In this document: in pieces, positions 32,725 to 43,124 of the stretch
Position numbering within the stretch: position 1 is the first letter of the stretch
Layout of the letters: each line of letters starts with the position of its first letter
From: Eledone cirrhosa
Lineage: Eukaryota
DNA: 64,000 bases
Reading direction: 5' to 3'
NCBI GenBank assembly: GCA_964016885.1
Contig: OZ024746.1
Coordinates: 54,312,001 to 54,376,000, forward strand
Position numbers and translations under genes: made by a program
Notes under the pieces: model-generated
Database searches by the model: none
What the model was told of the DNA's origin: nothing
Seen by the model: only the letters and a program-made list of their open reading frames with translations

Positions 32725-32925
32725 TAGGAACAAGTATTATCCCGACGGCAGAGCTCAAGCCGTTTCGACGGCTAATTCTGGACGAGGTCCAGAATTAGCC
32801 GTCGAAACGGCTTAAGCTCTGCCGTCGAGGTCACACTTGTTCCTATTACCCACTCTACTACCCTAAGTATTGAATACTTTGGTGCGTTATGGTCCATCTA
32901 GTTCCTTACCACATATCCTTCGTTA
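32725..32925. mobile_element. Family E palindromic element carrying two hammerhead 3' halves
   Basis: Both strands read GAAA-cggc...gccg-TC. Other copies at 34169-34374, 35328-35530, 42960-43124; fragments at 32220-32432 and 36816-36895. Confidence 0.75.
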
Positions 32926-33091
32926 TATATATATATCATATATATATATATATATATATATATATATATATATATATATATATATACAAATGGAAGTTCA
33001 GCAGAATCGAAGCTCTGGCTGCAGCCATGCTAACGAATGCAATCGGAATATATATATATATATATATATATATATATATATATATATATAT

Positions 33092-34057
33092 ATATTTAAT
33101 ACAATAACAGAGAAAGCTTTAAGCTAAATTCTGACTGGTAACCATCTCACTCACATTAGGGTATACGTTAGTATAATCCCAATGTTGTGTTTGGGGTGCT
33201 AACTATATGTATTTTGTGGAAAGCCAGTTGTATTATTTTATATGAGATATAATTAAAATAAAAATATATCTCTCTTTCCAAACAATTGTTTCATTATAAG
33301 TTTTCTACAAGTTGGGAGAATGTTTCCAGTTTATGTAGAAGCCTAACATATTTTTCTGTAAGAATATATCTAGGTGGGCACTTATAAATCATCAGTGGAT
33401 GCCCATTAAACTTTGATATAAGAAAAAATTTCTTACCGCAGTTATTTTTCGTGTCCGCTAAGTTATCCCTTCACGCATCAAATGACCGCCAAATTTGAAA
33501 TTCCACCAGTCTTTAGACTGAGGAAGTATCATAGCGTCACGAAGCGGAAAAGGGAGACAATCGCGAGTCACAAGAAAAGTAAAATAATATACACGTGGGT
33601 TAATTAGTTTTTTCAAAAACATTATCAATCCTGCGTGTTAAGAACTCAATTAATTTTAAAAAAATAAATGTATGCATGTATTAATTACACACGCATATAG
33701 ATATTTTCTTAGGCTAAAAACAGAGAAGTGATACCTAGATAACAAACAATATCTCATAACAGTAATACATACGGAAAGTTACGTTTAAAAGGTATCTGGA
33801 AATAAAATTCTCTGGCCAAATCAAGAGTAAAATATTTAATACAATAACAGAGAAAGCTTTAAGCTAAACTCTGACTAGTAACCATCTCACTCAACAAACA
33901 TTAGGGTATACGTTAGTATAATCCCAATTTTGTGTTTGGGGTGCTAACTATATGTATTTTGTGGAAAGCCAGTTGTAATATTTTATATGAGATATAATTA
34001 AAATTAAAATATATCTCTCTTTCCAAACAATTGTTTCATTATAAGTTTTCTACAAGT
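33092..34057 (-). mobile_element. Non-coding element with ~220-bp terminal direct repeats (period ~740 bp) inside (TA)n
   Basis: 33092-33312 repeats at 33832-34057. Degenerate minus-strand HHR-like CTGATGA-tttat...ataaa..GAAA-ca...tg-TA at 33300-33400. Confidence 0.7.
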
Positions 34058-34168
34058 ATATATATATATATATATATATATATATATATATATATATATA
34101 TATATATATATATATATATGTATATGTATATATATATATATATATATATATATATATATATATATATA

Positions 34169-34374
34169 TAACGAAGGAAATGTGGTAAGGAACCAGGTGG
34201 ACCATAACGCACCAAAGTACTCAATACTTGGGGTAGTAGAGTGGGTAATAGGAACCAGTAAGACCCCGACGGCTGAGCTCAAGCCGTTTCGACGGCTAAT
34301 TCTGGACTAATTTAGTCCAGAATTAGCCGTCGAAACGGCTTGAGCTCAGCCGTCGGGGTCTTACTGGTTCCTAT
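34169..34374. mobile_element. Family E copy with a perfect 63-bp-arm palindrome (34248-34374)
   Basis: ataggaaccag...ctggactaa-t-ttagtccag...ctggttcctat. Confidence 0.85.
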
Positions 34375-39357: not shown

Positions 39358-39479
39358 CACACTTTCAACATAGACTGATCAAGTAAATATTGTATCGATT
39401 TTCCCGTCCTTAGCTGCACTGTGTAAAAGATTCAGATCATCAACTCTATTGCTGTTGGTTTTGTCGGTGTCGTTGTTGT

Positions 39480-40940
39480 TGGTGTGGTTGTCGTAGGCGT
39501 TTTCATTTTTCGTTACGCTGTTCTTGTTGTTGGTGTTATTGTTAACCATTTTGTTGTTCTTGGCGGAGTTGGTGTTGTTGTTGTCGTTGTTGCGGTTGGT
39601 GTTGTTGTTGTCATTGTTGCAGTTGGTGTTGTTGTTGTCATTGTTGTAGTTGGTGTTGTTGTTGTCATTGTTGTAGTTGGTGTTGTTGTTGACCATTCTG
39701 TTGTTCTTGGCGCAGTTGGTGTTGTTGTTGTCGTTATTGCTGTTGGTGTTGTTGTTGTCATTGTTGCAGTTGGTGTTGTTGTTGTCATTGTTGCAGTTGG
39801 TGTTGTTGTTGTCATTGTTGCAGTTGGTGTTGTTGTTGACATTGTTGTAGTTGGTGTTGTTGTTGACCATTCTGTTGTTCTTGGCGCAGTTGGTGTTGTT
39901 GTTGTCGTTGTTGCTGTTGGTGTTGTTGTTGTCGTTGTTGCAGTTGGTGTTGTTGTTGTCATTGTTGCAGTTGGTGTTGTTGTTGTCATTGTTGCAGTTG
40001 GTGTTGTTGTTGTCATTGTTGCAGTTGGTGTTGTTGTTGTCATTGTTGTAGTTGGTGTTGTTGTTGACCATTCTGTTGTTCTTGGCGCAGTTGGTGTTGT
40101 TGTTGTCGTTGTTGCTGTTGGTGTTGTTGTTGTCGTTGTTGCAGTTGGTGTTGTTGACCATTCTGTTGTTCTTGGCGCAGTTGGTGTTGTTGTTGTCGTT
40201 GTTGCTGTTGGTGTTGTTGTTGTCATTGTTGCAGTTGGTGTTGTTGTTGTCATTGTTGCAGTTGGTGTTGTTGTTGTCATTGTTGCAGTTGGTGTTGTTG
40301 TTGTCGTTGTTGCGGTTGGTGTTGTTGTTGTCATTGTTGCAGTTGGTGTTGTTGTTGTCATTGTTGCAGTTGGTGTTGTTGTTGTCATTGTTGCAGTTGG
40401 TGTTGTTGTTGCCGTTGTTGTAGTAGGTGTTGTTGTTGTCGTTGTTGTAGTTGGTGTTGTTGTTGTCGTTGTTGTAGTTGGTGTTGTTGTTGTCGTTGTT
40501 GCAGTTGGTGTTGTTGTTGTCGTTGTTGCAGTTGGTGTTGTTGTTGTCGTTGTTACAGTTGGTGTTGTTGTTGTCGTTGTTGTAGTTGGTGTTGTTGTTG
40601 ACGTTGTTGTAGTTGGTGTTGTTGTTTTCATTGTTGCAGTTGGTGTTGTTGTTGTCATTGTTGCAGTTGTTGTTGTTGTCGTTGTTGCAGTTGGTGTTGT
40701 TGTTGTCATTGTTGCAGTTGGTGTTGTTGTTGTCATTGTTGCAGTTGTTGTTGTTGTTGTTGTTGCAGATGGTGTTGATGTTCTTTTTAAATTCGTTGTT
40801 GTTATTGGAGCAGTTGTTGTTGTTGTCATTGTTGGTGTTGGTGTTGTTGTTTTTAATTTCGTTGTTGTTGTTGCAGTTGGTTTTGGTGTTGTTGTCATTG
40901 TTGGTGTTGGTGTTGTTGTTTTTAATTTCGTTGTTGTTGC
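39480..40940 (-). repeat. 27-bp minisatellite with higher-order units; reads as mucin-like (PTATMTTTT)n on the minus strand
   Basis: Unit gttggtgttgttgttgtcattgttgca with recurring gaccattctgttgttcttggcgca inserts; triplet phase preserved. Confidence 0.9.
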
Positions 40941-42672
40941 CATTCTTCAACTTGTCTTGTTTCGTTGTTACTGTTGGTTCTGTCATTGTTCATGTTGTTC
41001 TTGGTGTAAATGTCGCTGTTGTTTTTGTTGCCATTGTTTCTTTCGTCTATTTTTTAGGTTGTTGCTTTTGTTGTTTTTGTTGTTGGCAATACTGCCTAAA
41101 TTGGTGTTCATGCTCATCATAATGGTGCTGATGGTGGTGGTGTTACTTAGCTCAACGTTTAAGCCGCTGCCACGTGGCCGCTGCCTTAACGTTGGTGGCA
41201 TGCTCCGTCCGTGTTTTTTAAAAAGCAAAAAAAACATGTTTTCACACAAGGCCCAAATATTATGTGATCGCCTTAACACAGGTCAATATGTGGTGCCTTA
41301 TCAACAGTTTGTAATGAAAATATAACGAGTGCAATGTAAACAGAGTATTATTGAGATACAACTTGGCAAACCAAACCACAAATATAATGATAATTTCACT
41401 CTTCTTACTGTATTTGTTCGTTATAATTTTTTTCCCGAGAAGGAAAAAAATACCTACAACACCATTTATTACAACTTTGTATTTTTAAGTATCGAACGTA
41501 AGTGGAATAGAATAGTTGTCTACAATTAGAAAAGGTAAGGAAAAAAAATAAAGATAAAAACTGGTTTGCCAAGTAGGAAATATATCACGTGACATTGACC
41601 ATTTTTCAAAATGAATGTATTTACTTTTCTTCTCTATTTGAAAGCACATTGTCAGCATAATGTAACATTAAATAGATCTATATTGCCGAAGGCAGTGATT
41701 CTTGTCTTGCAGCATGCTAGCATCACGATTTGTCATATAAAAGCTTTCTCTGATAATCCTTGCATTAATCTTTGGAAATTTATCCTGATTTCCGCTTAAG
41801 CATTACTAAAGTTGGCTCATGTCTCAAGGCTACTACTGGTAAGTCATGTAATGATAGCCAAGTAAAAAGAGAAGCGTAAAGAAAGAGGGGGAAAATAATC
41901 AATATTTAGGAATAATAGCCATGCCAGGTAATTTTAAAAAGATTTCAGTAATAAGGGATATCATGCTACATAGTTTAAACACTGAAGACAAGTGTGTGAA
42001 TAAAATACGTTAACCCCCCATAAAGATAATATCAGGATAATATGAAGTTGTGTGTGAGTGGGTGTGTTTATGTATTGTGTGGATGTCCGTCGGTTTAGAC
42101 GAAGAGTGTTAAAGTTGTTTGAATAATAGGTCTGTAGTGGTAATCTCCTGAAATTAACGTGCGAGTGGCTGAGCATTTCACAGATGCGGCTTTGTTTTAA
42201 AGATAAATCAACAAAATAGAAACAAAATCCCACCACCCAGGCTACATTTCTATCACCATGTTTACCAACGGAGATATAAACGTTTAGAAGGACAAGCTAC
42301 TGTTTATAGAAATTTGAGTGACTGTGTAGAGGCTCCTAGAAAGCGTGTATGGCTGGTGCCATATTACTGGATCTACGTCTGTTACGAAGCTGAGTGTTCA
42401 GGTTGCTTGAACAACAGAGCACTTGGTAAGTCTCATGTAATTAATGTACACGTGTGGTTGAATATTCCAAAGATACGGGCACCCTTAACATAACTGATAT
42501 GTAGATTCAGCGTGGTAGTGTATGCAAAAACTGGCCCTTCGATTTACAAGTATAACTGTCAAATGTCATATTTATCTATTCATATTGAAGTGTTGGTTTT
42601 AAATGTGAGTGTGTGTCTGTGAAACACACACTCACACACACACACACACACATATATATATATATATATATA

Positions 42673-43124
42673 GTTTATCCCGGGTTCAATCGGGAGTAAC
42701 CACAGTAAGTAAGGTTCTCAATACATAGCAGGGTATAAATAGTTAATATATACAGGACTAGAACAGTTTCATTCGGGAGAAATCATGAGGAAGCCCTGAT
42801 GCCTGATGATGTCGCCCGAATCAAACAGTTCTAGTCCTGTAGAAGCCATTTCTAGATTCAATATATATATATATATATATATTTATATGTATATATATAT
42901 ATATATATATATATATATATATATATATATATATATATATATATATATATATATATATATAACAAATGAGGTGTGGTAAGGAACCAGATGGACCATAACG
43001 CACCAGAGTACTCAATACTTAGGGTAGTAGAGTGGGAAATAGGAAAATGTTTAACCTCGACGGCAGTCCAGAAATAGCCGTCGAAACGGCTTGAGCTCTG
43101 CCGTCGGGGTTAAACTTTTTCCTA
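42673..43124. mobile_element. Family A fold-back (42673-42863) and family E element (42960-43124) stacked in one (TA)n tract
   Basis: Similarity to 3392-3585 and 35328-35530. Confidence 0.75.

Follow-up and report, generated by a model that had tools for sequence, protein, structure and literature searches.

How four short palindromes in one stretch of the Eledone cirrhosa genome came to carry the 3' half of a hammerhead ribozyme on both strands, and the ribozyme's 5' core on neither, is the question raised by this locus. The stretch, referred to throughout as the window, comprises 64,000 nucleotides (nt) of contig OZ024746.1 (assembly GCA_964016885.1, positions 54,312,001 to 54,376,000), and all four palindromes (copies A to D) were found at the places given for them by an earlier, sequence-only reading, each inside (TA)n and each with GAAA, stem III and UC on both strands. 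Their words recur far beyond chance: in the 3.0-Gb assembly used for genome-wide exact-word and motif counts (G000), a 33-mer of the arm has 13,772 + 13,883 exact matches (27,655) and a 31-mer of the tail 17,981 + 18,028 (36,009), with none for the reversed controls, and the family numbers over 36,000 copies. As judged from their sequence, the palindromes are almost certainly insertions of a Hydra-clade Penelope-like element (PLE), and they very probably consist of two complementary DNAs (cDNAs) of the first bases of the element's RNA, joined head to head. The 5' end of that RNA is probably a capped transcription start at an adenine inside ribozyme stem II, which now lies at the centre of the palindromes.

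Positions are given below as signed distances from the parent element's predicted hammerhead cut site (after GUC, the next base being +1). The short (S) arm is the one with its outer end at +20, and the long (T) arm bears the tail and has its outer end at +101. One arm of each kind, head to head, makes up copies A (32724-32927), B (34167-34374), C (35327-35530) and D (42958-43125):

32724 to 32783, minus strand: copy A, short arm, PLE -40 to +20, outer end in (TA)n
32787 to 32927, plus strand: copy A, long arm, -40 to +101 with the 81-nt tail; 3 bases separate the arms
34167 to 34310, minus strand: copy B, long arm, -43 to +101, of the youngest subfamily, with 100% identity to the reference parent
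34310 to 34374, plus strand: copy B, short arm, -45 to +20; the join is a short A/T overlap
35327 to 35467, minus strand: copy C, long arm, first base exactly A(-41), end at +100
35468 to 35475, minus strand: copy C, 8-base insert, repeating the first bases from A(-41) as read from the sequence
35476 to 35530, plus strand: copy C, short arm, -35 to +20
42958 to 43066, minus strand: copy D, long arm, early stop at -8, outer end +101
43065 to 43125, plus strand: copy D, short arm, A(-41) to +20, outreaching the long arm by 33 nt

The centres differ in each of the four copies, and the one symmetric centre sequence proposed for all of them does not hold. The last copy, described as having one arm cut, does have a shortened arm, but this is the long tail arm, which stops at -8; the short one extends as far as A(-41). 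Similarly, the variants taken as copy-specific are indeed common to both arms of a copy, but they mark subfamilies, those of copy B occurring in 43 and those of copy C in 31 of 172 arms.

Insertion of the retroelement type is supported, and the unfolded parent that had been predicted exists. One complete insertion (L172:3787-8872) reads (TA)n, an inverted 1.24-kb arm to +20, a 5' pseudo-long terminal repeat (pLTR), an open reading frame (ORF) and then the 3' end, which is made up of a 1.2-kb 3' untranslated region (UTR), hammerhead, tail and (TA)n. This insertion, together with tandem arrays of the parent (period about 3.53 kb), displays the PLE features of pLTRs arising from partial tandems, an inverted 5'-truncated copy and a tail at one end. 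The single ORF of PLEs, with reverse transcriptase (RT) and GIY-YIG endonuclease, is found as well: a 719-amino-acid frame stands open at L041:7080-9239, with RT plus a GIY-YIG at the C terminus, the motifs YRDD and VIY...YIG being read from the sequence. Searches of Pfam and PDB with this protein (P0001) gave no hits; it has 2,054 homologues at E <= 1e-20, with 38-54% identity among the 120 listed, and the best has PF01541, presumably the GIY-YIG domain, on record. Its further motifs are RWR (for RWK), DKT, CNCPDRSIC (a CxCx5C linker), CNLC (CxxC) and CKH (CxH), and CCHH is absent as judged by eye. The motifs given for the Hydra clade in the covered parts of PMC8557442 are RWK, DKT, CxCx5C, CxxC and CxH, and the same parts describe a single ORF with RT and C-terminal GIY-YIG, (TA)n targets, a pLTR hammerhead, an inverted 5'-truncated copy and a one-end tail, all as here; the published Hydra-1_Obim protein also resembles the 719-amino-acid protein when the two are compared by eye. 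Insertion into (TA)n is equally evident in this family, TA repeats lying next to 124 of 133 ends at +101 and 111 of 128 at +20. By the same parts of that source, the family differs from the clade in its unit of about 3.53 kb (generally under 3 kb as published), its 81-nt tail (30-40 nt in published PLE tails), its stem II of about 50 nt and stem III of 6-7 bp, unlike those of the listed Hydra hammerheads, and the 170-210-bp palindromes that form most of its copies. Beside the parent and its arrays, one locus (L302, G000:C2:356028500-356033500) carries seven direct copies of a 299-bp unit that spans the element's positions -42 to +221.

The parent's ribozyme is not the canonical one that had been anticipated. 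Instead of CUGANGA with its C3-G8 pair, which occurs only 3 times in the genome-wide core counts, the family has UUGANAA (U3-A8; 4,954) or CUGANAA (C3.A8; 1,463), with 18 instances of UUGANGA (U3.G8); all four bases occur at core position 7, and the neighbouring positions are fixed. A proposal that the three CUGANGA copies form a compensatory subfamily was dropped, about five being expected from point mutation (1,463 x 18/4,954). The U3-A8 pair is a published hammerhead variant from Schistosoma PLEs (PMC4209133, in part). The Hydra-clade hammerheads in File S2 of PMC8557442, as far as covered, all have a ctga..g core; the family here has A at position 8. The minimum-energy fold of the parent is a three-way type I hammerhead junction with a GUC cut site, which at a z of -0.17 does not exceed shuffles in stability; the stems are almost invariant across 18 parents and therefore offer no compensatory support. 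Long arms that stop short end at +1 or +2 in 7 of 51 cases, about half of them explicable by overlap of G runs, which gives at most a hint of a peak at the cut site. Subfamilies with the unpaired C3.A8 core (1,463 parents) grew large, an amplification that would accord with cleavage being dispensable; in vitro, hammerhead cleavage was dispensable for insertion of another PLE (covered parts of PMC11167929).

Given this parent, the outer ends of the arms can be placed. Among 324 arms mapped from the window and 910 kb of merged loci, a non-random sample since the loci were picked around pattern hits, 128 end at +20 and 133 at +101. The +20 end is the CCTA(T) at which the short arm had been seen to run into TA, and the TA microhomology suggested at that time is upheld, since both outer ends sit on a TAT able to pair with a (TA)n primer; two further TATs in the tail give no peaks. 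The two ends correspond to the pair of internal start sites flanking the tail in Poseidon, for which in vitro work showed nicking and extension of both target strands (PMC11167929, in part). The arms pair in one way above all others: of 114 adjacent head-to-head pairs, 110 are S+T, 2 T+T, 1 S+S and 1 an S arm with a cut T arm. Moreover, the arms group by copy and not by side, 56 of 86 pairs being identical over 15 diagnostic bases and 16 showing one difference (larger distances within pairs being mostly parsing offsets), as against 11% identical in comparisons between copies (172 arms). Because the arms cluster by copy, the palindrome is built anew at each insertion, one of the two options that had been raised, and not inherited as in an ordinary miniature inverted-repeat transposable element (MITE).

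The inner ends are equally telling. They were scored by a subfamily-aware junction walk over the first 100 exact tail matches on C1, chosen blind to the fold point; 75 of these T arms have an adjacent S arm as partner, 1 a T arm, and 24 none within 45 nt. Thirty-one arms end before -35, 55 at -35 to -45, 3 at -46 to -100 and 11 beyond, so that of the 69 that reach -35, 55 have ended by -45. The per-base loss within this 11-nt cliff is 0.073, compared with 0.0055 just before and 0.0039 just after it (13-19 times lower). Within pairs, the further-reaching arm peaks at -41 (21/110) and -40 (19/110). A further edge lies at -45 in one subfamily group (26/100 arms) and weakly at -46 in another (7/100), each at the first upstream pyrimidine-A step. 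In run X1, contig depth rises about eightfold at the cliff and drops about 200-fold after +101; the contigs of X1 and of X4, which may come from the assembly's own sample, show a DNA depth profile only. The context of A(-41) is TTAGTC or TCAGTC, which we take to be initiator-like, and 29 nt upstream stands TATTTAAA, which we take to be TATA-like.

At the centre itself an extra base appears. Palindromes whose two arms both retain A(-41), separated by no more than 10 bases, number 2,415 + 1,233 in G000, and the first 50 of each set were read. Four of the 100 centres are blunt and 23 carry a single base, which is G:C in 21 and A:T in 2 (p 3e-5), or G:C in 20 of 22 when one subfamily possibly carrying C is set aside. 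In the parents, position -42 is T in 99 of 100, C in one and never G, the a and d subfamilies having T. If the G is taken as a cap, it lies on the S arm in 12 cases and on the T arm in 9. In 70 longer inserts (three from the subfamily with parental C having been dropped), the base before A(-41) is T in 100 instances, G in 22, C in 10 and A in 8, with C..G in 8 inserts and G..C in none; no arm among the 100 selected centres extends beyond -47. For L1 and SVA, an extra 5' G has been interpreted as the copy of a cap (PMC2912911, in part). Every reading of the centre inserts still requires a cDNA ending at -41. Runs of 13-19 T (sense) stand just before A(-41) at L013:~1490 and at G000:C1 near 18731500 and 20838050; their sequence suggests RT stutter at the template end.

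The same edge is met where no palindrome exists. Of 170 copies reading from the tail into the 5' UTR, 70 were examined (the first 30, plus 40 picked out of the following 70, with most array members passed over where arrays were long), and 12 of these loci contain 13 direct junctions between two pieces. The leading piece ends at +141 to +917; the second starts at -44 to -30 in 11 of the 13 (at -2 or +1 in the others), and the leading pieces mostly begin near the same edge. Because the direct junctions restart there, templates carrying the ORF start also stop at about -41 without a palindrome. A second PLE family provides a useful parallel, represented in the window by a palindrome at 4093-4439 with a canonical CUGAUGA hammerhead on both arms and by relatives near 14100-14400; in L350 a Hydra-like frame lies upstream. 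Breaks in the arms of this second family fall some 82 nt upstream of the core, at 10 of 30 loci and, in a hand count, in 38 of 100 listed arms; an octamer-like ATTTGCAT precedes the break by about 55 nt. Since this break falls outside the ribozyme, the fold point is not tied to stem II.

Taken as a whole, a course of two-strand priming at +20 and +101, run-off at a putative capped A(-41) and head-to-head joining is a reasonably probable explanation, and the best that we can offer. The element's protein, likely a dimer, would bind the tail region and nick both strands of (TA)n, and the nicked strands would prime cDNA at two internal sites, +101 and +20. As a pLTR stands at either end of the transcript, cDNAs of 60 and 140 nt would come from priming in the 5' copy, and long insertions from priming in the downstream copy alone. 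Both cDNAs would run off the RNA 5' end at A(-41), often adding C opposite the cap, and either the RT jumping across to the partner cDNA or host end joining would connect their ends, with few-base trimming, 1-2-base overlaps or short templated inserts. The 5' core would be missing from the palindromes because the ribozyme's 5' half is not contained in an RNA that begins at -41. Priming on both strands is likely, as are -41 (with -45 or -46 as a minor site) for the RNA 5' end, the copied cap as the origin of the G, and joining of the kind described. The reading yields a base-exact prediction, a capped RNA start at A(-41). More broadly, there is perhaps an even chance that the head-to-head palindromes of PLEs are a built-in product of a two-headed dimer reaction that primes both target strands at two fixed sites and fuses run-off cDNAs at the 5' pLTR copy. 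If this is true, tens of thousands of fossil products equivalent to rapid amplification of 5' cDNA ends map the element's transcription start to the base, inside its own ribozyme, and the choice of promoter sets whether an RNA carries a whole or a half hammerhead.

Several observations weigh against this account. The junction sets showing the extra G were preselected for A(-41) on both arms; among unselected ends an exact stop at this base is seen in just 9 of 100 long arms and 9 of 75 short ones, most arms being trimmed by 1-6 nt. Five of the eight C..G inserts can be read as brief copies of the arm, and those with CAAT would fit priming afresh on the tail. In some subfamilies the stem II helix has its top at the -45 edge, and later deletions at palindrome centres could partly explain asymmetric arms. 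Further, 24 of the first 30 copies reading into the 5' UTR pass -41 unbroken, 14 reaching the edge of the locus and 10 ending between -83 and -1347, which implies that RNAs starting further upstream are also used; such passage would be expected from read-through in tandem arrays. Finally, the extra G does not predominate in the second family, where 3 of 10 loci have it, and the CA at that family's break is preceded by AATAAA at a distance of 12 nt. Given these last two points, the nearest rival stays alive, namely that two cDNAs are joined as proposed and that the RNA owes its 5' end to processing, be it cleavage at a poly(A) site, nuclease action in stem II or a splice-related step, and not to transcription start. 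This we consider unlikely. GATAAA or AATAAA does stand about 10 nt before -41 in some subfamilies, TTTTCATTTAG resembles what we take to be the splice-acceptor consensus, and ends at -40 are about as frequent as those at -41, but the identical edge is present in subfamilies without such a hexamer, and a cut end leaves the extra G unexplained. For splicing in particular, ends at -39, which would be the first exon base, are rare (3/100). A spliced leader or upstream exon was also considered as the source of the G and rejected, the inserts having no constant upstream sequence.

Formation from a single cDNA that folds back and copies to +20, or that self-primes on an antisense template in the way suggested for rotifer PLEs, is very unlikely. 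Its stem II version, in which the cDNA stops in the ribozyme hairpin, self-primes and copies back, was the mechanism offered by the sequence-only reading, and it has a certain appeal: the two arms share a subfamily, their inner ends lie within 9 nt of each other in 71 of 110 pairs, the cDNA strand is predicted to form a stem II hairpin (z -2.2), and self-priming is the published reading of head-to-head PLE palindromes (PMC3846280, in part). A fold-back through stem II should nevertheless keep its loop and some of the 5' strand, and a loop (reach -47 to -75) is kept in 3 of the 110 pairs only. Nor should the copy outreach its template, yet the short arm goes at least 10 nt further than the long arm in 27 of the 110 (the long arm further in 12), and 4 pairs do not overlap at all. 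In 27 of the 100 selected junctions, both arms extend all the way to A(-41) and are separated by 0 or 1 base, so there is no room for a loop. Mixed pairs speak against a single cDNA as well: one pair of mixed subfamily is clear and two are possible, and at L046:2814-3134 and L119:8560-8745 an arm of the family meets one from a different PLE family head to head, without intervening TA, nested insertion being the alternative for these joins. The same edge, moreover, appears in the direct-repeat junctions, where nothing folds. Because the short arm often outreaches the long and few pairs keep a loop, the stem II version is not supported and must be regarded as largely refuted.

It is likewise highly improbable that longer inverted insertions were later cut back to arms of about 60 nt, whether through cutting of the A/T-rich stretch near -41 by the element's own endonuclease or through a collapsing palindrome centre. 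Palindrome centres are prone to deletion, and long palindromic insertions of the family exist. A related endonuclease favours A/T-rich DNA (PMC11167929, in part), but few ends fall between -46 and -100 (3/100) although A/T-rich sequence goes on there, the direct jump products share the edge, and the extra G is again left unexplained. As for a MITE or other non-autonomous element moving as a fixed palindrome with inherited inverted repeats, the copies are short, numerous and TA-flanked and some centres recur (one 6-base insert in 11 of 100), but the recurrent centre spans subfamilies, centres vary within each subfamily, the ends are unequal (+20, +101) and all the sequence maps to the PLE pLTR, and with the arms clustering by copy and the whole parental insertion L172 at hand this possibility is refuted.

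Run-off priming from two strands, as proposed here, has instructive parallels. The inverted-copy architecture itself is already published for PLEs, the origin of their inverted structures is named as an open question in PMC8557442 (in part), and the one explanation found in print invokes self-priming from an antisense template (PMC3846280, in part). In the Penelope elements of Drosophila virilis and Adineta vaga (PMC2377424 and PMC3846280, both in part), a head-to-head inverted copy, a one-end tail, tandem arrays and a pLTR promoter with TATA- and initiator-like motifs are found as here; the self-priming reading of their junctions rests on few copies, whereas the hundreds of junctions here indicate that two cDNAs were made on sense templates and stopped at a shared edge. 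In vitro, Poseidon of Anolis likewise has two internal RT starts bounding its tail; both target strands are nicked and extended there, and insertion does not need hammerhead cleavage. Its start sites are without target homology, in contrast to the two ends on TAT, and the parts of PMC11167929 covered give no account of an inverted join. Similarly, in L1 twin priming and R2 template jumping (PMC2912911, in part) two target ends prime on an RNA and the cDNAs are joined, but in L1 the second priming site varies and the cDNAs cover different parts, whereas here the sites are fixed and the cDNAs overlap to give a palindrome. The Cercyon PLEs of Schistosoma (PMC4209133, in part) share the U3-A8 core in the pLTR and have opposite-strand motif pairs 100-700 bp apart; their hammerheads are minimal, while stem III is long here and many parents have the unpaired C3.A8. 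A non-LTR retrozyme, with head-to-tail repeats each holding a complete hammerhead (bioRxiv 10.64898/2026.07.22.740005, in part), was considered and rejected, the units here being head to head with the 5' core absent. No run-off, twin-priming or transcription-start account of PLE palindromes was found in the literature, most subscription papers and the supplements of PMC11167929 being outside the scope; the family or the run-off idea may already be on record, Repbase and Dfam lying outside the comparison. The thousands of junctions in this family discriminate between models of how PLE inverted repeats form. Repeats of this sort are also liable to be annotated as MITEs or microRNA hairpins; an Rfam scan of the window gave only low-scoring microRNA-type matches, with no hammerhead among 150 of its 177 rows.

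The window holds two further pieces of the family and a variety of other repeats:

36813 to 36891, minus strand: fifth, older member of the family, consisting of the tail alone (+22 to +101) and truncated close to an inverted mariner-like element
32222 to 32422: diverged relative, comprising a stem III piece (32222-32255, minus strand) and a tail piece (32386-32422, plus strand)

Beside the first of these, at 36928-37646, lies the inverted arrangement of an element that we take to be mariner-like. Palindromes of other families occupy 3781-3979, 10846-11461, 30533-30711, 34509-35098, 38717-38767 and 55121-55276; several adjoin hammerhead-like CTGATGA motifs (11669, 11995, 34459) and, on that resemblance, may be the same kind of insertion. 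At 59420-59460 stands a hammerhead core of canonical appearance, its stem II a short GUCC/GGAC. A broken RT with a C-terminal GIY-YIG frame, interrupted by microsatellites, at 55671-57443 (minus strand) belongs to another PLE, presumably Neptune-like, and frame fragments of non-LTR retrotransposons, of at least two kinds, are found at 44112-54121 and 63100-63993.

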